Shown piece after piece: positions 1 to 18,349 of a stretch of DNA of 64,000 nt. The first letter of the stretch is position 1; each line of letters opens with the position of its first letter. A model generated the notes under the pieces. The model was given only the letters and a program-made list of their open reading frames with translations, was not told the origin of the DNA and ran no database searches. The DNA is taken from IMG/VR virus record IMGVR_UViG_2061766007_000596. One strand, 5' to 3'. The position numbers and the translations under genes were made by a program. This DNA is from an uncultured virus (IMG/VR IMGVR_UViG_2061766007_000596). Lineage: Duplodnaviria; Heunggongvirae; Uroviricota; Caudoviricetes.

Positions 1-590
1 TCAATGTTTATCAGCTTTTCACAAGCTACCGTCCATAAATCACACATGGGATATTGTTTGCCCCTAAACTCAAAAATAGGTGTTAAAAAGTCGGGATTAT
101 CACTTTCATCATTTCCATTTATAATATCAATACATCTACTTTTTTGTTGTGCCTCCCATATATTATAATCTTCATTGTAAAGATGATAAATATATTTTTC
201 AGTGAATGGAATTGCTTTTTTAAAATCAAAGCAGGCATTATAGGCAGTCACCATATCACACAATTCGAGGTCGGCGGAAAGTTCTTCCGCAATTTTATTC
301 CATGTTTTTGCAAAAATCTGTTCATTGTCTAAAAGATTTATATAAATAGGTCTTTTTTCACGATAATAAGCAGTATTGAAAACACTAGGGACAAAAAATG
401 TTTCTTGCACAAGATAATTGACTTTTTTCATTATATTACCTTGTCTATCAATAATTACCCAGCCTATATCATATATAAGTGGTTTTGCGATAGCTATTTT
501 CTGTTTCTGTTTTGCGTCTTTGCAAAGGTCGTTTGCAAAAGGCAAAGTTGCGGTTTCTGTGTCAAGTACTAAATAAAATTTCTTTTTCAT
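1..590 (-). CDS. DEDDh/DnaQ-like 3'-5' exonuclease (runs off the window edge; absent from the ORF track)
   Basis: Manual translation from ATG at 590: MKKKFYLVLDTETATLPF...MVTAYNACFDFKKAIP..., open to position 1. ExoI (DTE) and ExoII (YNxxFD) motifs; AGGAG RBS and promoter at 631-659. Confidence 0.8.
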   Translation of the reverse strand, partial: MKKKFYLVLDTETATLPFANDLCKDAKQKQKIAIAKPLIYDIGWVIIDRQGNIMKKVNYLVQETFFVPSVFNTAYYREKRPIYINLLDNEQIFAKTWNKIAEELSADLELCDMVTAYNACFDFKKAIPFTEKYIYHLYNEDYNIWEAQQKSRCIDIINGNDESDNPDFLTPIFEFRGKQYPMCDLWTVACEKLINI

Positions 591-630
591 ACCTTTTGGT
601 ATCTCCTTTTCTGTTTTAATTTATATAGGT

Positions 631-659
631 ATTATAACAGATGATATACGCATAAGCAA
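631..659 (-). promoter_or_regulatory. sigma-A-type promoter
   Basis: TTGCTT-17-TATAAT upstream of the exonuclease. Confidence 0.7.
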
Positions 660-718
660 GCATCAGATTGCATAAAATTCCGGGACTTTTTTTGTGCAAT
701 CTGACAAGTAATTTTTTC

Positions 719-747
719 TTGACAAAATACCTGGAACATAGTATAAT
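719..747 (+). promoter_or_regulatory. consensus sigma-A promoter pointing into a type-I hairpin (candidate small-RNA promoter)
   Basis: TTGACA-17-TATAAT; no plus-strand ORF follows. Confidence 0.7.
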
Positions 748-755
748 GCAAAGCT

Positions 756-784
756 CGGTGCGTCTTGAACTGCAGACGCACCGC
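756..784. repeat. type-I intergenic hairpin, copy 1
   Basis: CGGTGCGTC-TTGAACTGCA-GACGCACCG. Confidence 0.9.
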
Positions 785-821
785 CAAAGAAAGAGAGGCA
801 GGGGCTTTTAGCCCCCACCTC

Positions 822-1286
822 TTAAACATTTGCGGAAGATATTAAATTTAATAGGGCGGTGATAATACTTTCATTTGCATTGATTGTGTCACCAAGTGTC
901 CACCCCTTGCGGACATTATCATTATCATCTATCAAAATTTGCAATCCACCTAATTTTCTAGTGCAATCAGCTTTAGTTGTGCCATATTTTACTAGATGAA
1001 TTTCATCATAAGGAAAATTATATTTTTCTAACCAAGCTAATTTTGCTTGTCTAACTAGATTATCATATTCTTTTGAACTTCCTTTAGATAACCAAGTTGT
1101 AACAATTATTTTCCACCCCTGTAATTTAAGAAATAGTAAAATTTCATTTAAAATTTCTGGGTCGTATATGGGTTCTGCTATTTCATAAGGTCGTGGATTT
1201 TCACTCCTTAAATCTTCAAGCCAATTTTCTACACCATATAAATCTGCGATTGTTCCGTCCATGTCAAAAACTAAAATTTTGTCCAT
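822..1286 (-). CDS. HAD-superfamily phosphatase / 5'-nucleotidase-like protein
   Basis: N-terminal FDMDGTIAD (DxD motif I), motif II Thr (IVTTW), LIDD motif IV. Confidence 0.8.
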   Translation of the reverse strand: MDKILVFDMDGTIADLYGVENWLEDLRSENPRPYEIAEPIYDPEILNEILLFLKLQGWKIIVTTWLSKGSSKEYDNLVRQAKLAWLEKYNFPYDEIHLVKYGTTKADCTRKLGGLQILIDDNDNVRKGWTLGDTINANESIITALLNLISSANV

Positions 1287-1400
1287 TTGTATCCCTTCCT
1301 TTCATATACTAATAATACTCTTTTTTTAGGATTTTGCATAGTGGCAAAATAGCCAAATATTCAATTAAATTTTTGTGCAAGTTGCCCTGGAAAAAAAAAT

Positions 1401-1430
1401 GCGGTGCGTCTTGAACTGCAGACGCACCGC
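1401..1430. repeat. type-I intergenic hairpin, copy 2
   Basis: GCGGTGCGTC-TTGAACTGCA-GACGCACCGC. Confidence 0.9.
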
Positions 1431-1484
1431 TCAATAAAAAGGGGCAAAGCTGTTACACTTTGCCCGTTTTATCAGAAACGTCGA

Positions 1485-1883
1485 TTATTTTTTCAGCGGT
1501 CTGCACTCAATTATGTCAATTTTGAACGTTTTTTCACCAATTTTTACTGAAATTAGTTTATTTTCATTTAAAATAGTGACTTTTTCTTGATAAATACTCT
1601 TTAAATTGTTTAAAATCCCATTAAAAAGCGTTTTTTTCTCATCAGATACCTTTTTTTCTCGTGGTTTTTCTGATTTTTTTCTAGGTTTTTGCACTGTTTC
1701 ATGCTCAATCCCAGCTTTTTTAGCTTTTTCGTCAAGTTCCTGAGCAATTTCATTAACTTTATAGCCATTATCATCTAACCATAGGTCAATAGCATCAGCC
1801 ATTGATATATCTAAAGTAGATACTAATTTATCAAGTTCTTTATCTGGGATAATAATTGTTTTATCATTTAGTGTGTATTTCAT
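1485..1883 (-). CDS. hypothetical protein, paralog of 3856-4203
   Basis: 132 aa; Lys-rich linker and a C-terminal segment that aligns by eye with 3856-4203. Confidence 0.75.
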   Translation of the reverse strand: MKYTLNDKTIIIPDKELDKLVSTLDISMADAIDLWLDDNGYKVNEIAQELDEKAKKAGIEHETVQKPRKKSEKPREKKVSDEKKTLFNGILNNLKSIYQEKVTILNENKLISVKIGEKTFKIDIIECRPLKK

Positions 1884-1924
1884 GCAACCCCCTTAGAGGG
1901 GAGGGCGTTTCCGCCCTCAACAAC

Positions 1925-2308
1925 TTAGTCAGTAGTTACGGAGAAATATGCTTTTCTCTTATCAACAGTTCGTGTGACTGTCTGTTCCTTAACAAGAGAA
2001 GTCAGCATAGATGTAACTTTTGGAAGTGAAGTTCCATTAGGGATACGGTTATCAGCCAAAACCTCACTTGCAGTTACAGGAGTGCCAAGTTCGGTCAGAA
2101 TATCAACAATAGTTGACTTCAATTCTTCATTGGCTTCGTCCTTTTTGCTAGGCTTTTTGTTTGCGGACTTCTTATCAATCTGAGTGATACGACTTTCAAT
2201 AAAAGTCACCATATCTTCTACAGAAATTTCAGTGTCCTCACCATTCAGCTTAGCGATAATTGCATTGTAGTACTCTTTCATTGTGGTTTTCTTTTCCATT
2301 TGCATCAA
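1925..2308 (-). CDS. putative winged-helix DNA-binding protein, paralog of 4433-4831
   Basis: C-terminal TASEV...SLPKVTSMLTSLVKEQTVTRTVDKRKAYF fits a wHTH pattern; start codon uncertain by a few codons. Confidence 0.7.
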   Translation of the reverse strand: MMQMEKKTTMKEYYNAIIAKLNGEDTEISVEDMVTFIESRITQIDKKSANKKPSKKDEANEELKSTIVDILTELGTPVTASEVLADNRIPNGTSLPKVTSMLTSLVKEQTVTRTVDKRKAYFSVTTD

Positions 2309-2331
2309 CCCTTTCTTTATTTGATATAATA

Positions 2332-2360
2332 ATTATAACATATTTTTTATAAAAGGTCAA
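2332..2360 (-). promoter_or_regulatory. sigma-A promoter
   Basis: TTGACC-17-TATAAT. Confidence 0.75.
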
Positions 2361-2480
2361 GAGCTTTTTAAAAAAATTTGCAACTTTTTTTAAGAGCGGT
2401 ATCAGTTACGTTTCCGATGTCCACTAGGTTGTTTCTGTCAACTACCTCAACAGGCTCAACTCTTGACCTCTTATGTACTA

Positions 2481-2509
2481 ATTATAAGCTATGTTGATAA
2501 TAAATGCAA
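2481..2509 (-). promoter_or_regulatory. sigma-A promoter (tandem, upstream of a ~90-nt non-coding segment)
   Basis: TTGCAT-17-TATAAT. Confidence 0.65.
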
Positions 2510-2556
2510 GTACAAAAATGGGAAAATTAGACCCAGAATTTTGTTCAAATTGCCGA

Positions 2557-2585
2557 TTGACAAAAACCCTGGCCTGTGGTACAAT
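2557..2585 (+). promoter_or_regulatory. sigma-A promoter pointing into type-I hairpin copy 3
   Basis: TTGACA-17-TACAAT with TG extension. Confidence 0.65.
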
Positions 2586-2592
2586 GCGAAAC

Positions 2593-2622
2593 TCGCAGCG
2601 TTTTGAACTGCAAACGCTGCGA
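2593..2622. repeat. type-I intergenic hairpin, copy 3
   Basis: TCGCAGCGTT-TTGAACTGCA-AACGCTGCGA. Confidence 0.9.
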
Positions 2623-2631
2623 CAAAAGAGG

Positions 2632-2922
2632 TCAACTATCGTTGACCTCAAAAAAAGTGTCAATATTTTCATCTAACCCTAAATTAAAAGCAACCCAATC
2701 TGCATCAAAATCATTTAAGATATAGAAATCAATAAGGTTTTTTAGGGGAAGATATTTAATTTCTTCTTGATATTCCTCGTCCCAGCCATTTTCTTCAGAA
2801 TATAGATTTAAAAGTTTTTCTCTTAATGTCTTTTCATCTTTTACATAAAAATTTTGTTGTCTAGTTATTTTAATCATTTTCTGATACTCCATTCTTATCA
2901 TAAAATTCTTGAAAACTTTCAC
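2632..2922 (-). CDS. hypothetical protein (true start probably MIKITR at ~2877, coupled to the upstream stop)
   Basis: ORF track; acidic phage-like composition. Confidence 0.6.
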   Translation of the reverse strand: MKVFKNFMIRMEYQKMIKITRQQNFYVKDEKTLREKLLNLYSEENGWDEEYQEEIKYLPLKNLIDFYILNDFDADWVAFNLGLDENIDTFFEVNDS

Positions 2923-3382
2923 TCATGCGAAGTGCCATGTTTTTAATTTTTCGTGGGTGCTTTTTTGCATAATTAACTGCCCATTGGGTAGCCATTATTT
3001 CATCAGGTAATGAAAAATATTGAAATTCATATTTCTTCCATGTTTCTTCATCATCTGTATTATTTATATCTTCATCTATTCTGATTTTTTCTTCATCACA
3101 AAATTTTTGTACTCCATAAGAAATACTTTGTATTGTTTTGTGGTGTCCTATCTCATGTAAAAACAAGAGAATGAAAGGATATTCAAAAGAATAGTCAAAA
3201 CGGTCTTTTACAAAATCAATTAACCATTCATATTCTATCGGTAAATTAATTCCAAAAGTAATACCATATTCACTAGGTAAATAAGAATATTCACCTGTTA
3301 ATTCTGCGGAAATGATGCCAAAAGGGGATAGTTCTTTAAGAATAGCACTATTTAATTTTTTCTTACCTTTAACTTTACTCAT
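2870..3382 (-). CDS. putative zincin-like metallopeptidase-domain protein
   Basis: HEIGH (HExxH) motif plus a downstream Glu (PDEIMA). Confidence 0.55.
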   Translation of the reverse strand: MSKVKGKKKLNSAILKELSPFGIISAELTGEYSYLPSEYGITFGINLPIEYEWLIDFVKDRFDYSFEYPFILLFLHEIGHHKTIQSISYGVQKFCDEEKIRIDEDINNTDDEETWKKYEFQYFSLPDEIMATQWAVNYAKKHPRKIKNMALRMSESFQEFYDKNGVSEND

Positions 3383-3496
3383 AATTATTACCTCTCTATA
3401 TTGAATATTATACTCTCATTTTAGGAGAATACAATAGTTGAAAATATACAAAAATCCAGGGCAAAAATTGTGCAATAATACTAATCTAGTGAAATT

Positions 3497-3526
3497 GCGT
3501 GGCGTTTTGAACTGCAAACGCCACGC
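3497..3526. repeat. type-I intergenic hairpin, copy 4
   Basis: GCGTGGCGTT-TTGAACTGCA-AACGCCACGC. Confidence 0.9.
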
Positions 3527-3590
3527 CAAGTAAAAGACCAGCCAAAAGGCTGGTCAAAGAGAGAAGGGGGGCGAACATTTAGATAAAAAA

Positions 3591-3663
3591 TGCGGTCGAG
3601 GAGGTTCGAACTCCCGACAACCTGATTAAAAGTCAGGTGCTCTGCCAACTGAGCTACGACCGC
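3591..3663 (-). tRNA. tRNA-Lys (anticodon UUU), CCA not encoded
   Basis: GCGGTCGTAGCTCAGTTGGCAGAGCACCTGACTTTTAATCAGGTTGTCGGGAGTTCGAACCTCCTCGACCGCA folds as a canonical cloverleaf. Confidence 0.95.
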
Positions 3664-3677
3664 TTGTGTGGCAAGGG

Positions 3678-3851
3678 TTACTGAACCCTTGTGTCAGCCA
3701 CCTTTCCGTTTGGGAACACCACGTTCTCAAACACAACGCGGAAGCCTGCAAGCTCCGCCTTGGCGCGGAATACTCCATCAGAGTTCCACTTCTTTACGAA
3801 CTCTGCACGGGTGTTGGGACAATCGTTACGGGTAAGTTTAAGATTAGTCAT
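3678..3851 (-). CDS. hypothetical protein (57 aa, MTNLKLTRNDC...)
   Basis: Start reassigned to ATG 3851 after an AAGGA RBS. Confidence 0.65.
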   Translation of the reverse strand: MTNLKLTRNDCPNTRAEFVKKWNSDGVFRAKAELAGFRVVFENVVFPNGKVADTRVQ

Positions 3852-3855
3852 AGCT

Positions 3856-4203
3856 TTAGTTTCCTTTCTTTTTCCTGTGTTTGATAAGTGATAGTGAGTA
3901 ATCATCATTCCCAATGCGGAAAGTGATTTCCTTTACTTCATTTACTATTTTAACATCTGTTACAGTAGTTGTCAAGAGTAAATTTTCAAGTTTTTTAATA
4001 AACTCTACTTTGATGGGGTCTTTCTTGACTTCACGTTTTTTACGTTCTTTAGGCTCTTCCGCTTGAGCATAGTCGGTGATACCTTTAGCTTTAATTTCCA
4101 TTTCCGCCATTTCTTCAGCTTCTTCTCTTGTTACAGGTTCACCATCTAATTCAGCTTGTTTCATAATTGAGTTAATCAGTTTTTCTTTTTTCTTCTCGTC
4201 CAT
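3856..4203 (-). CDS. hypothetical protein, paralog of 1485-1883
   Basis: 115 aa; own promoter TTGCAA-17-TATAAT at 4233-4261. Confidence 0.75.
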   Translation of the reverse strand: MDEKKKEKLINSIMKQAELDGEPVTREEAEEMAEMEIKAKGITDYAQAEEPKERKKREVKKDPIKVEFIKKLENLLLTTTVTDVKIVNEVKEITFRIGNDDYSLSLIKHRKKKGN

Positions 4204-4344
4204 ATTTAATTCCCCTTCTTTTTTATATAAATATTATAACAAAATTTTTTAAAATTTGCAAGTACAAATTTTGGGGGTCCAGGGCTTTGGTTTTTGTGCA
4301 ATTTTACTAATAAAAAATCTTGAGCCAGAGGTCTAACGTAAAAA

Positions 4345-4374
4345 TCGGCGCGTCTTGAACTGCAGACGCGCCGA
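4345..4374. repeat. type-I intergenic hairpin, copy 5
   Basis: TCGGCGCGTC-TTGAACTGCA-GACGCGCCGA. Confidence 0.9.
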
Positions 4375-4432
4375 CAAAGCAAAAGGGCTAGGAAACTCAG
4401 CCCTAGCCCTTGATACAAGGAACATTTACCGA

Positions 4433-4831
4433 TTAGGTTTCTTCGTCCTCACTTTCAGTGATGGAGAAGTAAGCCTTGCGCTTATCCACAACCCTAGTTA
4501 CGACCTGCTCCTTTACAAGTGCAGTAAGCATTGAAGTCACTTTAGGAAGTGAAGTACCATCAGGGATACGATTGTCCGTAAGGATTTCAGATGCGGTAAC
4601 AGGGTTTCCAAGCTCTGTGAGAATGGTTACGATGGTTGACTTCAAAACCTCGTTTTCCTCATTCTTCTTTGTGGGTTTCTTGTTTGCAGACTTCTTATCA
4701 ATCTGTGAAATACGGCTCTCAAGAAACTGCACGCTATCCTCAAGAGGAATAGTAGGCTCTCCGCCATTCAGTACGTTGATAATGTCTGTGTAATACTCTT
4801 TCATTGTGGTTTTCTTTTCCATAAGCAACAC
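4433..4831 (-). CDS. putative winged-helix DNA-binding protein, paralog of 1925-2308
   Basis: Closely similar to 1925-2308 (MEKKTTMKEYY...SLPKVTSMLT.LVKEQ...VDKRKAYFS). Confidence 0.75.
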   Translation of the reverse strand: MLLMEKKTTMKEYYTDIINVLNGGEPTIPLEDSVQFLESRISQIDKKSANKKPTKKNEENEVLKSTIVTILTELGNPVTASEILTDNRIPDGTSLPKVTSMLTALVKEQVVTRVVDKRKAYFSITESEDEET

Positions 4832-4872
4832 CTCTTTCTTAAAAATGTTTTTTGGTTTCTTTTGATATATTT

Positions 4873-4901
4873 ATTATATCAAATTATTATTCAGTTGTCA
4901 A
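4873..4901 (-). promoter_or_regulatory. consensus sigma-A promoter (second promoter TTGACT-17-TACAAT at 5025-5053)
   Basis: TTGACA-17-TATAAT. Confidence 0.8.
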
Positions 4902-5147
4902 GAAAAATTATAACTTTTTTTTATTGAGGTTTTCTCCTCGGAATTGACTGCCCAAGTTTGCCGTCTAGTGCGCGCCCTAGCGAGGTTGTCTTGATACTGT
5001 TAAGTCGTTTCCTTTGATAATAAGATTGTATCAAAAAAAGTAATTAAAGTCAACAAAATAATAAACAAAGTTCCAGGATTTCCGGGGCTTGTTTTTGTAC
5101 AAAATGCACAAACAAAAAATTTCTGAGGTCTGTGTTGTAGTGAAAAT

Positions 5148-5177
5148 GCGCGGCGTTTGGCACTGAAAACGCCGCGC
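5148..5177. repeat. type-I intergenic hairpin, copy 6 (variant loop)
   Basis: GCGCGGCGTT-TGGCACTGAA-AACGCCGCGC. Confidence 0.85.
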
Positions 5178-5196
5178 CCAAAGGCCCGGCAATTTT

Positions 5197-5523
5197 CTAT
5201 GTTTTTATAATTTCCATAGGTGGCAATTCAATAGGACAATTTGCTAAAAATTTTTCAAAAGTATAATCTTTGTTTCGTTTTAATCCTTTTGGCACTTCAT
5301 ACCATTCTGTGTTTTTAACCTGTGTGTATCCTAGTCGTTTATAGTAAGAATGTATAGCACCTTCCGCAATCGAGTCAAAACCATCGGCAATATTTGCAAT
5401 TTCAATACATTTTGCTAGCGGATTATGTGTTTTGTAAGTGTTCATTCTTTTTTGTAGGTCTTTTGTTATTCCTACTTTTACAAGAGTTTTTGCTCCTCTA
5501 CTATCTTTTATTAAGTATAGCAT
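5197..5523 (-). CDS. GIY-YIG-superfamily (T5orf172/MUG113-like) nuclease-domain protein
   Basis: LYLI...VKVGITKDLQKRMNTYKTHNP...AEGAIH...TEWY pattern. Confidence 0.7.
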   Translation of the reverse strand: MLYLIKDSRGAKTLVKVGITKDLQKRMNTYKTHNPLAKCIEIANIADGFDSIAEGAIHSYYKRLGYTQVKNTEWYEVPKGLKRNKDYTFEKFLANCPIELPPMEIIKT

Positions 5524-5804
5524 TACTCAATTGCTCCCTTCGCAGTTTCCGCCATTTTATTTATTGCTTCTTTAAAATCATTATAAGGATTGTTAATATC
5601 TTCATATTTAACACCCAAGGATTGAACGAACATTACAACTCCCATACCTCTATCTAAAGTAGCCTTGCGACTCATTTCAATTAGTTTTCTTTCATCTTCT
5701 CTTGATGGAATAGATGGAGCGGAAGTTTGACGAGATATAAAAGCTCTAAAATCTTTGTGCTCAGTATTAAGATAATCAAGTGTTTTTTCAAGTATTGTAT
5801 TCAT
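5523..5804 (-). CDS. hypothetical protein
   Basis: 93 aa, AAGGAG RBS, coupled to the downstream gene. Confidence 0.7.
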   Translation of the reverse strand: MNTILEKTLDYLNTEHKDFRAFISRQTSAPSIPSREDERKLIEMSRKATLDRGMGVVMFVQSLGVKYEDINNPYNDFKEAINKMAETAKGAIE

Positions 5805-5816
5805 AATAATATCTCC

Positions 5817-5987
5817 TTAAATAAAAATAAATAAAAATTTGCTAGTTACTTTGTACCCTTTAACAGGCTTATCCATGTAGAACATTAACATATCGCCTAC
5901 ACCTTTGTGAGTGGCACTATCTATAATACGGATAGTTCTACCATAGATAAGTTTAGTATTTTTGTCAATCCAATCATTAACTGTCAT
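5817..5987 (-). CDS. small hypothetical protein (56 aa; below the ORF-track cutoff)
   Basis: MTVNDWIDKNTKLIYGRTIRIIDSATHKGVGDMLMFYMDKPVKGYKVTSKFLFIFI; GAGAGG RBS; TATAAT just upstream. Confidence 0.65.
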   Translation of the reverse strand: MTVNDWIDKNTKLIYGRTIRIIDSATHKGVGDMLMFYMDKPVKGYKVTSKFLFIFI

Positions 5988-6102
5988 ACCTGGTACCTCT
6001 CTTCTTATATACTATTATACTCTAATATGGGAAGAATACAATTGTTCAAAATAGATAAAAATCGGGGTATAAATTTATGAAAGGTGCATAATAATGGAAA
6101 AT

Positions 6103-6132
6103 GCGTGCCGACGCGGAGCATTGTCGGCACGC
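6103..6132. repeat. type-I intergenic hairpin, copy 7 (different 10-nt loop)
   Basis: GCGTGCCGAC-GCGGAGCATT-GTCGGCACGC; same size and context. Confidence 0.8.
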
Positions 6133-6151
6133 TCAAAGAGAAAGAGAGGGC

Positions 6152-6385
6152 TTAACCCTCTCTTTTATATACTCTTACTTTGTAAGTAGCATAACCGTAT
6201 TTAGATAAATCATTGAGTTGCCATCTTCTTTGCTGACATATTTTTTTGATGCCATCTTTTTGAAGTTCTTTTTTGAAATTCTTATTCGTTGAATAATCGG
6301 CATCTGTGTACTGTTCACGTTTAACTATGCAACTTACAGGCTTATAAGCCTTACTATATAAAGTTACTTGATATTCTTTAATCAT
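6152..6385 (-). CDS. hypothetical basic protein
   Basis: 77 aa, coupled to the upstream gene. Confidence 0.7.
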   Translation of the reverse strand: MIKEYQVTLYSKAYKPVSCIVKREQYTDADYSTNKNFKKELQKDGIKKICQQRRWQLNDLSKYGYATYKVRVYKREG

Positions 6386-6659
6386 TGACAGTCACCTCTT
6401 TTACTTTCAAAATAATGTCATCATTTCGGGTATAGTCTGTACAGTTATTATCAAAATAGAGTTTTACTGTTTGACCTCTATAATAATTTGTATCAGATAC
6501 ACCCCATAAATATCCTGCTCCATCTACAAAAGTAGTACCTGTTTCATCAACTGTATAAACATCAGCTATTACACTGTAATGAGTATCAGCATAACCGCCG
6601 ATAATCAATAGACCTAAAATAAAGATGATTGCTAAAAGTCCTGTAAAAAAGTTTTTCAT
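6378..6659 (-). CDS. small membrane-anchored protein
   Basis: N-terminal hydrophobic helix FFTGLLAIIFILGLLIIGG. Confidence 0.7.
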   Translation of the reverse strand: MKNFFTGLLAIIFILGLLIIGGYADTHYSVIADVYTVDETGTTFVDGAGYLWGVSDTNYYRGQTVKLYFDNNCTDYTRNDDIILKVKEVTVND

Positions 6660-6689
6660 TTTGTTTTCCCTCTTTTCTCTTTTTATAAA

Positions 6690-6774
6690 GGAGAGACCGC
6701 TAAGTTTATAGGCGGTAGATACCTAGGGCCGTTCTTCGTTTATAGGAACGGGATAAACCTCTTGCCCTCTCTCC
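6690..6774 (-). ncRNA. candidate structured 5' leader RNA
   Basis: Outer stem GGAGAGA/TCTCTCC encloses two hairpins, both with loops starting CTATAAAC; promoter TTGATT-17-TATAAT at 6783-6811. Confidence 0.55.
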
Positions 6775-6905
6775 ATGATTTAATTATACGCTCATAGTTT
6801 TTAAAAATCAACCTGGAACTTGCACAAATTTAAGGAAAAAAATGCCCCGGTTCTTGTGCAAAATGCACAAACAAAAAACCCTAAAGCCATTTGCTTAGTT
6901 AAAAT

Positions 6906-6935
6906 GCGCTGCGTTTTGAACTGCAAACGCAGCGC
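6906..6935. repeat. type-I intergenic hairpin, copy 8
   Basis: GCGCTGCGTT-TTGAACTGCA-AACGCAGCGC. Confidence 0.9.
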
Positions 6936-6939
6936 TCAA

Positions 6940-7224
6940 CAAAAGGGAGAGTCTTCTATACTCTCCCTGGCGATTTTATGAAGTTGGTAGCCGACCCTGC
7001 TCGGCAAACACCTTAGGTATCCATTTCCACTCTAGTAGGAAATCGCTGCTAATCTACTGTGCAAGCTCACCCCTGTGCACAAGGTACGACAGACTTAAAG
7101 GGCACTAAATGTTATTTAAGAGTAGCTTACTAGAGGCTCACGCACTCTCCGCCCGATTGGCTTGTCGGTCTATCCAAATGGAAGTTTCTCGCTCCCTCAT
7201 AGGAGTGTCAGTCATCTCCTCGAC
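6940..7224 (-). ncRNA. candidate ~285-nt structured non-coding RNA
   Basis: Promoter TTGTGC-17-TATCAT (7231-7259); intrinsic terminator GGGAGAG/CTCTCCC+T-run (6940-6967); many short stems; no ORF of 60 aa or more. Confidence 0.55.
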
Positions 7225-7355
7225 ATAATTATGATAACATATCTAGGGTAATGGCACAATAGTAATAATGCACAAAAATACGGGATTCTGATTGTGCATT
7301 TTGCTAGTTAGTTTTCAAATAAAAAAAGACCCGGCTATTCCAGTAAAGCAAAATA

Positions 7356-7382
7356 CGTCGCGCAACGTCCCATCGCGCGACG
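7356..7382. repeat. degenerate type-I hairpin (another at 8219-8258)
   Basis: CGTCGCGC-N11-GCGCGACG in the same position next to a terminator. Confidence 0.6.
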
Positions 7383-7448
7383 CTCAGACAAAAGGAGAGC
7401 CCCCAATTTCTTGGGGGCAATGGGAATATAAGAGGTAAAATAAAATTG

Positions 7449-7643
7449 TTAGACCCTAGCTACAAGGCGGTGAAGAGGTTTTATAGGGTTTTCATCAATC
7501 TCCTTGTTAGTATAAACAGGAACTACTGTGCAACCGCCCATCTCTTCAGCTTTTTTCTTTGCTTCGGGATAAGAAGTAATTCCCTCAGCTACGATAATAG
7601 AATTATGTCTGTTACTAACTATATTGTAGGTTAATTTTGTCAT
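7449..7643 (-). CDS. hypothetical protein
   Basis: 64 aa, GAGGAG RBS, promoter TTGACA-17-TATAAT at 7671-7699. Confidence 0.7.
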   Translation of the reverse strand: MTKLTYNIVSNRHNSIIVAEGITSYPEAKKKAEEMGGCTVVPVYTNKEIDENPIKPLHRLVARV

Positions 7644-7720
7644 TTTAAAATATCTCCTCTCTTTTTTTCTATTATATCAAAAATTTAATAATTTGTCAAC
7701 ATTTAGGGGCAGGAGCTCTA

Positions 7721-7951
7721 TTAAAAGAGCTCCATAGTTCCTTCAACTCCATATTCCGCAGTTTCTACAGGGTATTCCTCAGTGATATACTGCTCAAGAG
7801 TATGATAGCCTGTGCGGATATATAGAACGCTTTCAAGAACGTGTGTCCAAGAATTACCTACTAAATTGAAGGCTAGATTTAATTCCTCGGCAGTGGCTAT
7901 TGAGTCCTCTACCATAAAATCGTACATTCTCATTTCTTCGGGTGTCATCAT
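7721..7951 (-). CDS. hypothetical protein (start reassigned to MMTPEE)
   Basis: GAGAGG RBS upstream of ATG 7951; promoter at 8096-8124. Confidence 0.65.
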   Translation of the reverse strand: MMTPEEMRMYDFMVEDSIATAEELNLAFNLVGNSWTHVLESVLYIRTGYHTLEQYITEEYPVETAEYGVEGTMELF

Positions 7952-8359
7952 AGTAATTGTCCTCTCTCTCTTTATTATTGCGGTTTCCACTAGGTTATTG
8001 TTCTCCAATAATCAGCTTTGTCAAGTTGAAAATCTAAACATTAAGAGCTAGTTATCTCACTGAGAAGCTCCACCGCCTTGCTCCTCTGTAAGTATAGAAT
8101 ACCATATCTTAATAAGGATTGCAAGCTAAATACTGCACAAAATTTTGGGAACCTGGCGCCCCGGTTTTTGTACAAATTGCATAAATCAAACATTTGAGAA
8201 AGGTCTAATAATCAAAAAGCGGCGCGCTTCCTTGATAACGCATTCGTAACCGCGCCGCCGCCCTAACGAAATTACGTATATTTTTGTGCGGTATTGCGTA
8301 TACGCTATTTTGATAAAAAAGAGCGGTATTTAGATAACCGCCCTTTATTGAGTTAACTA

Positions 8360-8548
8360 TTAGCCGTACAATGCTGTCGAAATTCTGTCAATCAGATTGA
8401 ACATCCATTCTATTTGGTCTTCGTTCATTTCTACCCGGTCTCGCGTATAGTCCTCATACAAGGCGTCAATCTTTTTGTCGGCTACATGAAACAGCCTAAA
8501 ATTGCAAAGCTCTGTGATTTCCTCTAATCTGTTGTTTATATCTCTCAT
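8360..8548 (-). CDS. small helical protein, paralog of 12131-12319
   Basis: Shared pattern KKID.LYE.YT...M......M..LID.IST.LYG. Confidence 0.75.
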   Translation of the reverse strand: MRDINNRLEEITELCNFRLFHVADKKIDALYEDYTRDRVEMNEDQIEWMFNLIDRISTALYG

Positions 8549-8562
8549 TTTTTCACCTATGT

Positions 8563-8590
8563 GGGCGGTTTAACCACCTACCGCCAAGGC
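8563..8590 (-). repeat. type-II junction hairpin (other copies 8815-8851, 9175-9203, 10778-10813, 12326-12361; divergent 11053-11080)
   Basis: Minus-strand consensus CCTTGGCGGT-RGGTGGTYAA-ACCGYCA between a stop codon and the next RBS. Confidence 0.9.
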
Positions 8591-8597
8591 AATTAAA

Positions 8598-8810
8598 TTA
8601 TCTTACATATTCTACATTTATACCCATTTCTCTAGCTAATCTTAAAGGGTGATGTCTTACATTTCTCTCTATTGTGGTAGTACAGAGTAAATGTACTAAG
8701 GTTTCAGAAGACTCATTATCTTCATATATTCTCTGAATTAAAAAGTCTTCAAAATCACGTCTTGTAAATCCTATAACTCCATCTACTATGTAACTAATCG
8801 GTATGTTCAT
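8598..8810 (-). CDS. hypothetical protein (start reassigned to MNIPISY)
   Basis: GGAGA RBS just after a type-II hairpin. Confidence 0.65.
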   Translation of the reverse strand: MNIPISYIVDGVIGFTRRDFEDFLIQRIYEDNESSETLVHLLCTTTIERNVRHHPLRLAREMGINVEYVR

Positions 8811-8857
8811 GTTATCTCCAATCTGAAGGTCTAACCACCTACCTACAGGGCGATATG

Positions 8858-9145
8858 TCAATCCATTATATCTTCGAGTTTTTCAAGAGTTTCCCACCAC
8901 TCTTCGAAGTACTTACCGTATGCTTCATCATTGCATATCTCTTCATAGACTTCGCCATACTCTTCTTCAGCTTCATCAAGTGTAGCCTTAATTACTGCGA
9001 ATTTCTGAACTATCTCATCTAACTGCGCCCAAAGGTTCTCTGTCTCACAGGCGATAAAGTCAGTGGCATCACCGTCCATATGATTAGATATAAGTGCCAT
9101 ATTATTAGCTACTGCGTCCATAAGCTCCTGTTTCATTCTACCCAT
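8858..9145 (-). CDS. acidic hypothetical protein (start reassigned to MGRMKQ)
   Basis: AAGGAG RBS. Confidence 0.7.
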   Translation of the reverse strand: MGRMKQELMDAVANNMALISNHMDGDATDFIACETENLWAQLDEIVQKFAVIKATLDEAEEEYGEVYEEICNDEAYGKYFEEWWETLEKLEDIMD

Positions 9146-9210
9146 TTTTATTACATCTCCTTTGTTTTTTATAGTTAACGGTTTGACCACCCACCGCCAA
9201 GGCAATATAT

Positions 9211-9489
9211 TTAGTTGTTAGCGAGGTCAGCGTTGAAAAACTTTTCTTCAAAAGTGCTGTATTCACACTTGTTATCCTCATTGAAATCAGGCATATATAC
9301 TGTAATATCATGCCAATCCTCACGGATAACTCCCTCTGCGATAGCGTCCTGTATAAGGCTATAAGCATAATCCCTATAAGAACGGCTATTCCATTTCTCA
9401 CTTTCCTGTATATAGGCAAACATATCACAATCATCTTCATAGTTTACCTTTACAAGGTTAGTTGCGTCATAAGCATACATTTTAGCCAT
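9211..9489 (-). CDS. acidic hypothetical protein
   Basis: 92 aa, GAGAGG RBS; first gene after promoter TTGACA-17-TAAGCT (9585-9613). Confidence 0.7.
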   Translation of the reverse strand: MAKMYAYDATNLVKVNYEDDCDMFAYIQESEKWNSRSYRDYAYSLIQDAIAEGVIREDWHDITVYMPDFNEDNKCEYSTFEEKFFNADLANN

Positions 9490-9516
9490 AATCTTTACCT
9501 CTCTTTATAAAGTTGT

Positions 9517-9581
9517 CATTGTGCGTGTCTGTTATTGGAGCTAGGGACTTATTTCGGTGATGCCCTGTCCTTCAAGACACT
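9517..9581 (-). ncRNA. conserved structured leader, copy 1 (copy 2 at 11415-11478)
   Basis: Stem GTGTCT/AGACAC versus GTGTCC/GGACAC; shared ATAAGTCC and GACACGCACAATGA. Confidence 0.5.
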
Positions 9582-9619
9582 TATAGCTTATCACATCATA
9601 CCTAAAATGTCAAATTTGA

Positions 9620-10225
9620 ACTTCCGCATGGTTACTGGGTTTGAGGGGTGTCAAAATCCTGGAAGGCGCATGGTTGACAGGAAAATCGTAGGTCCAAACC
9701 CGCAATCCTGCATGGTTGAGCCATTTCAGAATCTTCTACGTTTTGCACAAAAATTTTTCATTTTTTTGTACAAAATGCACAAGAGGGTCTCAATACGCAT
9801 GAATACTGAATTTGCAGGGTCTCAAGTCCTGAGATCCGCTTAAATAGGGGCTTTCAAGGCTCTACCCCTTGGAATTCCGCATGTTTACTGGCTTTGCAGA
9901 CCATGGGTTGGAAAACCGCATGAATACTGTGTTCTGAAACCCGCATGAATACTGCGTTTGAGGCCTGTCTGCAAACCCACTGTTCATGCGGCTTCTGAAA
10001 CCCGCATGGATACTGAGGTTGCTCGCAAAGCTGCATGAATACTGGGTTTGCAGACACCCCTGGAACCCGCATGAATACTGGGGTTGCGCAAAGCCGCATG
10101 GGATCTGTGTTTGAGGGGTGTCCTGCAACTCGCATGGATACTGGGTTTGCATTGTGGGACCCCGCAAACCCGCATGAATACTGAGTTTTCGATCGCCGGA
10201 AACCCGCATGGTTACTGGGTTTGGG
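9620..10225. repeat. array A of AAACCCGCATGRATACTG(GGTTT) motifs
   Basis: About 16 copies by hand count, irregular spacing (mostly 25-42 bp), at least one inverted. Confidence 0.9.
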
Positions 10226-10410
10226 AACACGCCGCTCGTCGAAACGCTACGCTGGCGCTCGCGGCGCGATGACCAATAGGATTGCTTTTATTTTAGGATT
10301 AAAAAATTTTATTTGAAACAGTTTAGCAAAATTTTAAAACAAACAAAGCAAACAAACAAATCACATTGCGACTGTTATGATCTGTGTACGATCCACGCAG
10401 ATCATAATAT

Positions 10411-10437
10411 AAAAGAGAGGATAAATCCTCTCTTTTT
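10411..10437. terminator. bidirectional intrinsic terminator
   Basis: AAAAGAGAGGAT-AA-ATCCTCTCTTTT. Confidence 0.7.
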
Positions 10438-10482
10438 TAGATTACTCAGTGATGAATAAATCACTGTAGTAATATATTTTAT

Positions 10483-10773
10483 TTATATTTGAAATTCATA
10501 GAAATTCATTTCATTACAAGAGCGTATTAACATCTCCTTATAATACATTTTTGGAATATAAAACTCTTTATTGAGTCTTATTCCTTTACTATCTACTTCC
10601 ATACCCAGTCCCCATATATCCTCACATTTACACATAATTACATAGGTATTATATGGTGAATAGTATTCTTTTTCATAGCGAAGAATTTTAATATTTTCAC
10701 ATGAAAGATATATTGATAAATCCTCCGCCATCATATCATTAAGTCCTCTGAAAATGATTATTGATTGATCCAT
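10483..10773 (-). CDS. hypothetical protein
   Basis: 96 aa, GGAGA RBS after a type-II hairpin. Confidence 0.7.
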   Translation of the reverse strand: MDQSIIIFRGLNDMMAEDLSIYLSCENIKILRYEKEYYSPYNTYVIMCKCEDIWGLGMEVDSKGIRLNKEFYIPKMYYKEMLIRSCNEMNFYEFQI

Positions 10774-10820
10774 GTTTTCTCCAATCTGACGGTTTAACCA
10801 CCCACCGCCAAGGTTGTTAA

Positions 10821-10994
10821 TTAGTAGTTATTTTGTGTTTGGTTATAATAGTTAAAATCCCTAATAATAGCCCTTCTATTTTCAGGGGTATCAGGAAGAT
10901 TATACCCACTACGGTTATCTCCTAAAAACAGCTCACCAAAATCATTAACTCCACAAGATAAACCTGTCTTTTTGTTTTCTTTAAAAATTTCCAT
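10821..10994 (-). CDS. hypothetical protein (start reassigned to MEIFKE)
   Basis: AAGGAG RBS. Confidence 0.65.
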   Translation of the reverse strand: MEIFKENKKTGLSCGVNDFGELFLGDNRSGYNLPDTPENRRAIIRDFNYYNQTQNNY

Positions 10995-11104
10995 TATTGC
11001 TCCTTTCTTATGAAAGGGGGACTTCCTTGTCCCCACTTATATGTTAGATAGGTGGCGGACTTTGAGCCGTCCGCCATGGCAAGATATTCAGTTAAAGTAT
11101 TTCA

Positions 11105-11383
11105 TTAGTCGAAATACTTATGATAAGAAGAACAGCCAATCAATCCCTGGTTGAAATTGATTCTAGTTATAGTATGTTCGCTAAAGTGGCTTTCAATTGC
11201 AATTCCATAAGAACTAGAGAATACCCTTGCTCTAGGCATTTCAATCCATAATGTTGTAGGCATGAGTATAGTAGATTTACCACTATCAATTATATAACTG
11301 CCTTTTGGAAATACATGAGCTATTTTAGCCTTTGCTATCCTTTTTGAAGATAAGTCATCAAAACTAAGTTGTATTGTTACCAC
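11105..11383 (-). CDS. hypothetical protein
   Basis: 92 aa, GTG start, GAGGG RBS; promoter TTGACA-17-TAATCT at 11482-11510. Confidence 0.6.
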   Translation of the reverse strand: MVTIQLSFDDLSSKRIAKAKIAHVFPKGSYIIDSGKSTILMPTTLWIEMPRARVFSSSYGIAIESHFSEHTITRINFNQGLIGCSSYHKYFD

Positions 11384-11513
11384 TCTTTTTCCCTCTTTTC
11401 TCTTATTTAGTTTTCATTGTGCGTGTCCATTTTGGAAACGAGGACTTATGTCTGTGGTGCCTTGCCCCTCGGGACACTTATAGATTACTACTTTTGCAAC
11501 CTTTTGTCAACCT

Positions 11514-11925
11514 CAATGTTTATGCGGTTTTCAAGCCCCGGCTTTTCTGAAACCCGCATGAATACTGCATTTCAGGAGCATAAAATTTCTTTTTGTATCT
11601 TTTGCACAAAGTTGTCATATCAAAATCTCATTTTGATTGTGAATTTTGCACAAAACCCACATCTGTTCTAAAGGTGCCCGCAAACCCGCATGAATACTGC
11701 ATTTGCGAGAAATGGCTCAACCATGCGGCCTGGCCCGCAAACCCGCATGAATACTGCATCCTAGAACGCAGGCGTGGTGCGGTTTTCCGGCTCAGGCCGC
11801 ATGGTTACTGCGTTTGCAAAAAGGGGTACTCGCAAAGCCGCATGGTTACTGCATTTCAGGACTTGAGAGCCCGCAAACCCGCATGAATACTGCGTTTGCA
11901 AACCCGCATGGATACTGGCTTTGCG
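11514..11925. repeat. array B of AAACCCGCATGAATACTG motifs
   Basis: About 9-10 copies, both orientations. Confidence 0.9.
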
Positions 11926-12130
11926 AAATTTAGGGCCGTAATTGGGCTCGACCCACAGGGTACCCCGACCCATAACGGCCCAAGCAACTAATATATCAAC
12001 ATTCAACATCTAAACAAACAATTGTGCAAACAAACAATTAAATCACATTGTGATATTGTTATATTGTTATGATCTGTATATGATCTATGTAGATAGCATA
12101 GGCAAGGGGCCTTATTCAGGCCCCTTTGTA

Positions 12131-12319
12131 TTAGCCATACAGTTTGGTACTTATCCAATCTATAAGAATATACATATAATCCTCTTCCTCTTTTGTCATT
12201 CGAATCTTGCTTTGTGTATATTCCTCATACAGCTCATCAATTTTCTTGGCTGCATATTCATAATGGTGTCCTGCAGCTGCTGCCCTAACTAAGTTTAACC
12301 TATCCATTATTGTCATCAT
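12131..12319 (-). CDS. small helical protein, paralog of 8360-8548 (start reassigned to MMTIMD)
   Basis: AGGAGA RBS after a type-II hairpin; terminator at ~12104-12128. Confidence 0.75.
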   Translation of the reverse strand: MMTIMDRLNLVRAAAAGHHYEYAAKKIDELYEEYTQSKIRMTKEEEDYMYILIDWISTKLYG

Positions 12320-12370
12320 ATTATCTCTCCTAACTGACGGTTTAACCACCCACCGCCAAGGTTATTTGTT

Positions 12371-12637
12371 TTAGTAAATGTATTCAATATCATTGAAATC
12401 TATTTCAACTTCAGTTTCTTCATTGATTATGATTTTAATAACTTTATTGATATAATCAATGATGAACTGCTGCTCATCAGCATCGAGTACTAACGTTCTA
12501 TACGAGTCTCCATACACGCTATCACTTATGCCTAATTCCTTGCGCAATTCCCTTTGAGTCTGTACAAATCCTATTAACTGCAATCTGTACTTCCTTATAG
12601 CTTCTTTTTTTACTAATACATAGATAGTTGTTTCCAT
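12371..12637 (-). CDS. hypothetical protein
   Basis: 88 aa, AGGAG RBS; promoter TTGACA-17-TAAGGT at 12686-12714. Confidence 0.7.
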   Translation of the reverse strand: METTIYVLVKKEAIRKYRLQLIGFVQTQRELRKELGISDSVYGDSYRTLVLDADEQQFIIDYINKVIKIIINEETEVEIDFNDIEYIY

Positions 12638-12789
12638 TCCTTTTCTCCTTTTCTGTTTTTGTTTGTTCCCTCTTGGGATAATACTACCTTATCAAAAAAT
12701 GTTTTCATTGTCAACACCTTTTTTCAAAAAAAGTTTTTTTTCTTTCAACTTTGCATGAAATCTGACTTTGTTAGCTCAATACCTCAAGA

Positions 12790-13045
12790 TCCTGATGAAT
12801 ACTGTGTTTTTTAACATGCCCTCTCAGGAATGGCTCAACCATGCGGGGTTTCCCGCAAACCCGCATGAATACTGCGTTTGCAAATGCAGCAACCATGCGG
12901 CTTTCAGCGCCAGGCCGCATGAATACTGACTCCGCAAATGAAGGTGCCTTAGAGCCCGCATGAATAGTGGGTTTCGGGAGTTCAGACGCCGCAAACCCGC
13001 ATAAACACTGGGCTCGCAAACCCGCATAGATACTGGCTTTGCGGA
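12790..13045. repeat. array C of AAACCCGCATGAATACTG motifs
   Basis: About 8 copies, both orientations. Confidence 0.9.
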
Positions 13046-13615
13046 ATCTCGGGCCCTGTGGCTCGGCCAGGGGTTTGATGGGCACTCGCCTACGGGCCCA
13101 GCAAAGGTCCTATGTCCCATGCCTGGTCGGACCCGCGCACCCGCATGTCCTTTAGTCTTTTACCTTTATATCTTCTCTTGTTTTCTCTTTTATTATTAAA
13201 ACTCATTGTGTTGTTCTTTGTCCTTTCTCTCTCATCTCACAACAATCGATTGAACAACACTGTCTCTCTTGTCCCATCAATCTTATCAATTCTTCTCTTT
13301 TGTTCTTTTGTGGCGGTTCTTTTGTGGAGGGTAGGCAGCAGATCGCTTGGCTCTACGCAGCGTTTGTCTACAGAGCATTCGGGGGGTATATTTCAGGATT
13401 TTCGTCTATTGAAAGAGTAGAGTGCTTTTGGCTCATACTCCCCCACACCAAAAATTTTTCTCTTTTTTCCATATCCCTTTCTATCCCAAAAATTTTTCTC
13501 TTTTTCCCATATCCCTTTTTAAGGAAAACCGCTTCCCGCATTTATCTCCATCACCCAATTTTAAAAATACCTATACGCATGACCAAAACCGCCTTCCTCT
13601 TCCTCTTAATCGTAC

Positions 13616-13695: not shown

Positions 13696-14853
13696 ATGGA
13701 GATTAGACACATGGAAAATGAAAATAATAAAACTCAATCTTCTCCTAGTGAAGGCGAAGCCTTCACCTATATTAAAATGGATTATTCATTAGAAACTGCA
13801 GAAGAAAGAGTTAAGAAAGTAGAAGAAATTATAGCTAATACTCCAGAAGAAAAACTTACCCCCTATTACTTAGAAAAATTAGGAGAATACATAGTAATAC
13901 CAGCAAATAAAAAAGAACGATTAGAGAACAAATATTTAACAACAAATCACATGGTAACTGTAAATAAAAGGGAACTTTCTTTTGAGGGTTTAATAGAAAA
14001 AATTTCAGGTGAAAATGGAGAAAACCGCGATGCTATTCATAGCATGATAGCCAATGATAAAAACATCATCTTCTCCCCCAAAATAGGAATAACACAAGAA
14101 GACATAGAAGAAATACCAGGGATGCGGGAATTGGTTGATGCAATCAAGGAAGTAGAAGCCCAGAAAAAAGCAGCTACCGGCCGCCGCGCTCTCCTTTTAG
14201 GAAAACAACTTATTCAGATGCGGGAAGACCAATACGTACTAAAGGCCGCTTACCGCAAGCCCATCCGCATGATGAATATAAAGAAAACTTATTCCTTCTT
14301 AGACCTTAGTGAAAAAATAACAATAGATGAACAAGGGGTTCCCGCAAGTACAGGTTATCTTAATCTTTTTACACCAACTCATATCTCTCTCTTGTTGTGT
14401 AACTATTCTAGAATTAAAGAAGAGAGTTGGGATAGATTTGAAAGTGATATTCGTTGGATGATGGAAGATCTTGATGCTCTTGTTGACAAGACATTCAAGG
14501 ACAAATTCCCTTTATATTACGACCTAATCATCTATAAAATAGATGGAAAGTCAAATGCGGAAATCCAAGATAAATTAGCGGTTGACCATGGTATTCGTCA
14601 TTCAGTAGAATATATAAGTGCATTATGGCGTAATAAAATACCTAAAATGATTGCAGAAACCGCAATTAAAGATTGGTTAGTTTGGCACTATACATTTGAA
14701 GAACGCGGGAAGTGGAAACGTTGTTCAAAGTGTGGACAAATTAAATTAGCTAGTAACTACTTTTTTTCAAAAAATAATACAAGTAAAGATGGTTGGTATT
14801 CTATTTGTAAAGAATGTAGAAATTCTAAGAATAAAAAAATACAACCTAGATAA
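13696..14853 (+). CDS. DNA-binding protein with a sigma-region-4-like HTH and a C-terminal Zn ribbon
   Basis: LIIYKIDGKSNAEIQDKL...SVEYIS segment; CSKC...CKEC. Confidence 0.5.
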   Translation: MEIRHMENENNKTQSSPSEGEAFTYIKMDYSLETAEERVKKVEEIIANTPEEKLTPYYLEKLGEYIVIPANKKERLENKYLTTNHMVTVNKRELSFEGLIEKISGENGENRDAIHSMIANDKNIIFSPKIGITQEDIEEIPGMRELVDAIKEVEAQKKAATGRRALLLGKQLIQMREDQYVLKAAYRKPIRMMNIKKTYSFLDLSEKITIDEQGVPASTGYLNLFTPTHISLLLCNYSRIKEESWDRFESDIRWMMEDLDALVDKTFKDKFPLYYDLIIYKIDGKSNAEIQDKLAVDHGIRHSVEYISALWRNKIPKMIAETAIKDWLVWHYTFEERGKWKRCSKCGQIKLASNYFFSKNNTSKDGWYSICKECRNSKNKKIQPR

Positions 14854-18315: not shown

Positions 18316-18349
18316 AATATAGATGAAGGATTTAAAGGAGGTATCTTTT

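Follow-up and report, generated by a model that had tools for sequence, protein, structure and literature searches.

The early region around the orphan unit

On the minus strand of a phage genome fragment from the bovine gut, a stretch of ~285 nt from position 7224 to 6940 lies between an early promoter and an intrinsic terminator. The fragment analysed as a whole (the window, 64,000 nucleotides) is part of a large tailed phage with PHROG matches for a sigma factor (13696-14853), a large terminase (16084-17826), a portal (18323-19972) and structural proteins. Among the GenBank phages, the terminase is nearest to that of an unannotated human-faecal phage fragment with 65.5% identity, followed by Geobacillus virus E3, the Enterococcus phages VRE9_4 and H1, Alicyclobacillus phage KKP_3916 and phAss-1 with 41-45% identity. 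The source phage is a large siphovirus of Bacillota and kin of Geobacillus E3, Enterococcus VRE9_4 and phAss-1. According to the SRA word index, the stretch is present in four DNA runs only, all of one bovine-gut sample and one study, and no sequence variants of it were found across the contigs from these four runs. Since bases 1-13,600 carry small minus-strand genes, the unit has to be read on the minus strand.

The promoter expected from the sequence-only reading was found upstream of 7224 on the minus strand, and it belongs to the same family as the early promoters of the phage. An alignment of eight early promoter regions (A1) showed that the ~70 nt upstream of the unit are laid out like the gene promoters, element by element, in the order TGCACAA box, CCCG/CCGG box, TTTTGT, -35-like hexamer and TGnTATNAT. 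The first element of this shared module, the TGCACAA box at 7292-7300 (AATGCACAA on the minus strand, repeat family D20), forms an inverted repeat with 7267-7275 (I4). The promoter core at 7231-7259 (repeat family D10) comprises a -35-like TTGTGC (7259-7254), a 17-nt spacer, an extended TG (7239-7238) and the -10 element TATCAT (7236-7231), and aligns with TGTTATAAT of the gene promoters; an overlapping reading, GTGCCA-18-CATAAT at 7257-7228, was obtained from the promoter scan. Based on this geometry, transcription would start 6-8 nt past the -10 element at 7222-7226. An SD-like GAGGAG (7221-7216) occupies the same position as the Shine-Dalgarno sequence of the gene cassettes in A1.

Single TGCACAA boxes are located ~70 nt upstream of the early -10 elements at most early promoters of the window. 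In addition, the palindrome TGTGCA-N4-TGCACAA is found at 5095-5111, 6854-6870, 9766-9782 and 11637-11653; by its sequence it looks like a candidate operator for a regulator.

Downstream of the promoter, the GAGGAG directly adjoins the ATG at 7215 (spacing 0) of a 25-codon ORF at 7138-7215 (MTDTPMRERETSIWIDRQANRAESA), while the second in-frame ATG at 7200 is 15 nt away from it. Both the MFE and the centroid fold predict a 5' hairpin at 7201-7221, in which AGGAG (7220-7216) pairs with CUCCU (7205-7201) and the first AUG lies in the loop. The following body (6969-7200) has a GC content of 48%, short hairpins and an AU-rich middle, and it holds the palindrome TGTGCACA at 7074-7081 and a TGTGCA at 7058. 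Direct-repeat families are absent within 6900-7310, the window contains no paralogue of the unit, and the complementarity of the unit to the rest of the window nowhere exceeds 11 nt.

The unit is closed by an intrinsic terminator at 6939-6968 (AGGGAGAGU / ACUCUCCCU), which consists of a perfect 9-bp stem with a 7-nt loop (6968-6944) and a subsequent TTTTG (UUUUG in the transcript). Adjacent to it is a so-called type-I hairpin at 6935-6906 with an 11-bp stem and a loop within TTGAACTGCA, followed by ATTTTAAC; both elements had been described beforehand and are indeed present. The type-I hairpin occurs in seven copies in the early region, comprising six members of family D6 and the copy at 2557-2626 in family D9, and it appears to act as a second, conserved terminator-like boundary element. 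The gene upstream of the unit (7643-7449) ends with two terminator-like hairpins at 7418-7399 and 7383-7355. With these two upstream and two more downstream (6968-6944 and 6935-6906), the unit is insulated on both sides.

Type-I hairpins are also associated with promoters on the opposite strand. Consensus-grade plus-strand promoters at 719-747 (TTGACA-17-TATAAT) and 2557-2585 (TTGACA-17-TACAAT) point antisense into a type-I hairpin and the 3' end of the preceding minus-strand cassette. The corresponding motif TTTTGTCAA...ATTATA is conserved in relatives, namely in the loci L066 (~3360-3395 and 2960-2990), L024 and L035. The copy beside the unit (~6866-6905, the 6901 copy) is degenerate. Judging from their arrangement, such promoters could drive antisense RNAs or a control of the early cassettes by convergent transcription.

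The unit is GC-richer than its surroundings, as had been stated before, with 48.4% GC compared to 30.9% for the window, which places it in the top 1.46% of all 285-nt windows. The same level is reached by the region of the tRNA-Lys and by three repeat arrays. The tRNA-Lys(UUU) at 3591-3663 is the only tRNA in the window (found by ARAGORN) and also the only Rfam match in it at gathering score. Directly upstream of it lies a minus-strand ORF for 56 aa (3680-3850), whose 50.9% GC is unmatched by a wide margin among the 24 early ORFs and which is probably a recent import. The three GC-rich arrays between 9616 and 13050 (9616-10232, 11546-11932 and 12783-13050) comprise 22-23 copies of a hairpin-forming repeat of ~20-37 nt (CGCATGAATACTGCGTTTGC-like, with GCAAAC...GTTTGC arms), and the ORFs called in them may be spurious. 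They may represent origin, iteron or protein-binding arrays; at comparable places, L034, L024 and L072 contain arrays of different palindromic repeats.

Several other elements of the early region attracted attention. A 41-nt element (TCTCCAATCTGACGGTTTAACCACCCACCGCCAAGG-like) is present in five copies (8554-8594, 8815-8855, 9167-9207, 10778-10818 and 12326-12366), four of which directly adjoin minus-strand gene starts. On the RNA, every copy is a hairpin beside the SD; from this position, the element could be a shared translational operator. The gene 6659-6378 has a 5' UTR of 123 nt (6660-6782, minus strand), in which the motif CCUAUAAAC occurs twice (6704-6712 and 6738-6746). Visual inspection of the sequence places both copies in the loops of small hairpins, with a GGAGAGA/UCUCUCC helix around the pair; in the MFE fold of this UTR, the outer helix and the first hairpin are retained, and the fold is thermodynamically unremarkable with a z of -0.55. 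Tandem promoters ~120 nt apart (2385-2505 and 4905-5035, minus strand) stand ahead of both paralogous genes, 2308-1925 and 4831-4433. The ORF-less spacers between these tandem promoters would be transcribed and thus represent putative further non-coding early transcripts.

Fold, known RNA families and relatives of the body

The description of the unit as structured was not borne out, as the thermodynamic tests remained at chance level on both strands and in sub-windows. The minus strand showed an MFE of -83.7 kcal/mol compared to -81.0±5.7 kcal/mol for 200 dinucleotide shuffles, corresponding to a z of -0.48, and 56 of the 200 shuffles folded equally well. For the plus strand a z of -1.11 was determined. 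Without the terminator z rose to +0.62, and the lowest of eight 100-nt sub-windows was not under -0.71. Every stem pair of the series listed in the sequence-only reading is present in the sequence, but the series could not be confirmed as more than chance. Perfect local stems of at least 5 bp with loops of 3-12 nt numbered six compared to 2.4±1.9 in 300 shuffles, of which 5.3% reached this number; for stems of at least 4 bp, 16 were counted compared to 9.7±3.8, with 8% of the shuffles reaching 16. This excess of short local stems is marginal at best. A long-range 8-nt complement of 7030-7037 with 7128-7135 is close to the chance expectation, estimated at 0.6 such pairs in 287 nt.

Neither a tRNA nor a tmRNA was found in the unit by ARAGORN, which agrees with the earlier remark on missing tRNA and tmRNA ends. 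Likewise, no family of Rfam 15 matched the unit, either at gathering scores or at E up to 10 in a search of a 901-nt slice with permissive filters. In the latter search, two junk matches were obtained outside the body, namely mir-7918 (E 9.5) on the type-I hairpin and STnc550 (E 4.4) at 6653-6707. Accordingly, tmRNA, tRNA, 6S, SRP, RNase P, T-box and other riboswitches, ROOL, GOLLD, C4 and pRNA were rejected for lack of an Rfam 15 match. A ToxI-like type III antitoxin or a CRISPR-repeat mimic RNA is excluded, since the unit contains no tandem or direct repeats. Type I toxins were rejected as well, because the 25-aa product is charged and hydrophilic instead of a hydrophobic membrane peptide, and a 39-aa plus-strand ORF shows charged residues throughout. 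The same holds true for a type I antitoxin layout, since the promoter scan found no plus-strand promoter reading into 6940-7224.

The search for relatives of the body covered phage, metagenome and host sequences. Sensitive ('distant') blastn against 50,697 GenBank phage records gave no match. In 51 sigma-factor-anchored IMG/VR loci with 10-kb flanks, no match to the body was obtained with blastn or nhmmer; only the promoter segment (~7305-7224) resembles other early promoters, and tblastx of these loci with a query including the promoter region gave a best E of 0.015, within the promoter part. For a set of 78 loci (989,859 nt) the best blastn E of the body was 2.7, with no nhmmer match at E up to 10, and tblastx with the body alone against all 90 loci (1.03 Mb) gave a best E of 0.71. 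The pattern of the type-I hairpin, with which the metagenome contigs were screened, occurs in no IMG/VR locus and in 18 metagenome loci; three of them (L052, L055 and L066) are related cassette regions, none of which contains the body. The body was also absent from nine MAG contigs carrying the sigma factor, and an 18-mer from it had no match in IMG/VR. With the flanking proteins (6378-6659 and 7449-7643) as anchors, no relatives were found in IMG/VR, and the one relative sharing the gene 7721-8008 (L004) is cut at that gene. For fragments of host origin, five genomes holding relatives and 399 + 399 further genomes of two classes were scored (803, Bacillota-side), with 2 + 2 more left unscored. 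The 803 scored genomes, which are a sample, showed only matches of 17-47 nt with a best per-genome E of 5.5e-4, corresponding to chance over ~800 genomes. As no homologue of the body was found in anything searched, there is no sign of selection on its sequence or structure.

In the related loci, 41 ORF-poor GC islands were observed, two of which hold a tRNA-Lys according to ARAGORN. Ten islands were read and consist of small ORFs (<50 aa), palindromic-repeat arrays or stretches at intergenic boundaries, apart from the one in L077 with its tRNA-like element; neither these nor the two with tRNA-Lys resemble the unit. Rfam applied to eight island-bearing loci found only one tRNA and two group I introns. 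The introns (RF00028, 58 and 66 bits) are adjacent to each other in the late region of a related Bacilli-MAG phage contig (L072:12725-13383, plus strand). The ORF-free island of L077 (1128-1262, minus strand), on an Acutalibacteraceae MAG contig of a distant relative, has a tRNA-like end made up of a 7-bp acceptor stem, a T-arm (GUGGGUUCGACUCCCAC) and ACCA. It was recognised by neither ARAGORN nor Rfam (E up to 1) and may be an unusual tRNA-like or mini-tmRNA-like element. A literature search found no comparable descriptions of a unit like the one at 7224-6940.

Cassette exchange and comparison with known systems

In what is read as the same slot of the relative L066, two type-I hairpins bracket an ordinary unit of promoter, SD, 59-aa ORF and terminator, which has the same size as the orphan unit. 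Since a normal gene cassette is found there between two such hairpins, the orphan unit appears to fill a full expression slot. A contig of a second related phage in the same sample, present in two of the DNA runs, keeps the hairpin 7349-7379 and the promoter 7671-7699, with 490 nt between them and not 291 nt. These two elements flank the gene 7643-7449 and thus delimit the slot neighbouring the unit, not its own. As read from the contig, this joint is direct evidence of cassette replacement, and differing payloads between the same boundaries are seen for the neighbouring slot only (joint 7379/7671).

Such exchange fits the model of the PeSL cassettes of T4-type phages, for which composite motifs of terminator/stem-loop and early promoter with small-ORF payloads are described (PMC2839356, PMC4122927). 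The likeness comprises small early units, repeated boundary motifs and contents that vary between close relatives, the last seen here for the neighbouring slot. A repeated terminator/stem-loop and an early-promoter motif are also found at the edges of the cassettes in the window, and the layout in L066 is the same. In contrast, the phage group and the motif sequences are different, and the payloads portrayed there are small ORFs, while the payload of the unit contains none. Stand-alone sRNAs derived from phages have been reviewed as a class (PMC12197685), and in the outline given there the unit resembles them in being phage-encoded, in having its own promoter and intrinsic terminator and no translated frame, and in its presumed action as RNA. 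Unlike for these sRNAs, no sequence or structural relative was found for the unit. Furthermore, its ~285 nt are more than the length of most described base-pairing sRNAs.

Phage morons are independent inserts of promoter, gene and terminator. The unit has its own promoter and terminator and is a self-contained expression unit inside a phage genome like a moron, but its payload is not a gene. ROOL and GOLLD (Rfam RF03087 and RF01998) are GC-rich, ORF-less RNAs of Bacillota phages and prophages as well, rumen sources included. The unit has about half their length or less, no Rfam 15 match, and an ornate conserved fold is not in evidence. The type I toxin-antitoxin RNAs of SPbeta-type prophages (bsrG/SR4 and similar) are ~200-300 nt long, show a sequestered SD and belong to large Bacillota phages. 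While the unit shares all three properties, its 25-aa peptide is hydrophilic and an overlapping antisense promoter is missing.

Possible nature of the unit

Judged by its sequence features, the early transcription unit is real, has clear limits and lacks an ORF. The sequence-only reading had seen no credible protein gene in it, and this can be upheld: stops occur in all six frames, and on the transcribed strand an ATG opens no other ORF than the 25-aa one at 7215-7138. Over all six frames, the longest open stretch (55 codons, plus strand) has no start codon and showed no protein relative among proteins of near or greater length. Tests for recoding, for a pseudogene, for a captured gene fragment and for a conserved micro-peptide brought no support for any of them. 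That the unit is the mRNA of a micro-peptide of 25 aa (ATG 7215) or 20 aa (ATG 7200) with a long 3' UTR is improbable in our view. Such an ATG ORF behind an SD-like GAGGAG at the usual SD position of the cassettes would be in line with the very small cassette genes of the relatives (42-59 aa), but the SD lies 0 nt from the first ATG and 15 nt from the second, and the predicted 5' hairpin ties it up by pairing with CUCCU. Moreover, no six-frame match was found in the 90 loci (1.03 Mb, best E 1.1), the 39-aa plus-strand peptide being likewise without match, and this reading offers no explanation for ~170 nt of GC-rich RNA without translation. It is hardly to be expected that stop-codon reassignment conceals a protein gene here or that the unit is a recent pseudogene. 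Reading through TGA and TAG results in a frame of 79 codons, which starts at the SD-linked ATG and closes with a TAA 9 nt ahead of the terminator, and TAG suppression is among the features reported for the phAss-1 group (PMC10607447), to which this phage is kin. However, one TGA and two TAG, and thus two different stops, would both have to be read through. TGA ends seven and TAG three of the 51 ORFs in the window, a stop-reassignment scan of the whole window revealed no real gene that is meaningfully lengthened or fused by read-through of TAG or TGA, and the only tRNA of the window is Lys-UUU. The read-through product (TGA=W, TAG=Q) matched only two tandem-repeat proteins among 1.84 billion representatives, with six weak repeated stretches each at 25-28 bits per stretch, which are spurious. 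The four stops in 96 codons correspond to chance at this composition (estimate ~4.8). That a former gene has slowly decayed is improbable as well, because the three nonsense codons in 79 sit beside an intact 70-nt promoter module and a perfect 9-bp terminator.

Among the non-coding readings, we tentatively favour a stand-alone early phage sRNA in a swappable cassette, to which we give somewhat less than an even chance. In its favour are, at the level of sequence, the insulation by terminators on both sides, the early-class promoter, the high GC content and the pairing of the SD in the 5' hairpin. It is opposed by the chance-level fold, the lack of a homologue, a GC content that is not specific to RNA, and the absence of complementarity above 11 nt in the window. 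In addition, the shared modules of promoter and SD and of terminator and hairpin are repeats where recombination could insert a meaningless payload. Such a payload without function, the main rival, is rather doubtful as an explanation but accounts for the facts almost as well as an sRNA: recombination at the boundary modules would have exchanged a small gene or cut it short, and what remains would be a foreign, GC-rich piece of non-coding DNA, transcribed simply from its position between intact boundary modules. This would fit the SD-like GAGGAG at the cassette SD position without a start codon at usable distance, the repeated boundary modules (seven type-I hairpins and shared promoter families), the exchange in the second phage contig (490 nt compared to 291 nt), the non-significant fold and a body unique to one sample. 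On the other hand, no source of the fragment was found in the phage database, the 90 loci or the 803 scored genomes, the 55-codon plus-strand frame has no protein relative of near or greater length, and phage genomes usually shed useless DNA fast, a general expectation that we count against this explanation. For a non-coding stretch to be so GC-rich in an AT-rich phage, either constraint or recent import is required; GC-richness is not specific to RNA genes and does not decide between sRNA and payload, because the early protein ORF 3680-3850 reaches 50.9% as well. Very improbable is a DNA-level element, in which the TGTGCA/TGCACA motifs of the body, i.e. the TGTGCA at 7058 and the palindrome TGTGCACA at 7074-7081, would be candidate sites for a regulator recognising the early-promoter boxes. 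The TGCACAA boxes do cluster early, with 11 of 16 copies in the first 14 kb, and the full palindrome TGTGCA-N4-TGCACAA occurs four times (eight strand matches compared to 0.29 expected). Spacing and arrangement in the body are unlike those of the promoter-linked palindromes, though, two short motifs in 285 nt are a post-hoc observation, and promoter and terminator would be left unexplained.

The designation as a non-coding RNA of unknown class is therefore retained in part: a phage origin, an own promoter and terminator, the absence of a gene and the absence of a known RNA family stand, while the attribute structured is not supported. Nothing but composition and context speaks for the designation. 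For the preferred sRNA, we infer the following course. A host RNA polymerase of the sigma-A type would start at ~7224 from the early-type phage promoter, and transcription would stop at the terminator 6968-6944, yielding an untranslated RNA of ~285 nt. The 5' hairpin would bury the leftover Shine-Dalgarno sequence and, together with the terminator hairpin at the 3' end, could stabilise and protect the ends of the RNA. The AU-rich middle (~7130-7085) and the hairpin loops would remain free for pairing with, or binding by, a host or phage partner early in infection. As a speculative extension, to which we attach little weight, the unit could represent a new class of GC-rich, phage-encoded RNAs of ~285 nt, sampled in this one case. 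Its RNA, expressed from an early promoter of the host-takeover region, would act as a decoy or sponge for a host factor, e.g. a component of defence or RNA decay; the unit would have been recruited into a gene-cassette slot, whose leftover SD would now serve as a protective 5' hairpin.

If the unit is a working RNA, it would be an addition from a Bacillota gut phage to the small set of phage-encoded stand-alone RNAs, and the swappable early cassettes of large siphoviruses would carry RNA genes besides tiny proteins. As a single orphan from one sample, it is useful mainly as a candidate to follow by RNA-seq of rumen phages and their hosts. The conserved cassette boundaries, comprising a terminator, a conserved hairpin, an antisense consensus promoter and an early promoter with TGCACAA box, may be the more general finding; they are common to relatives from several gut metagenomes.
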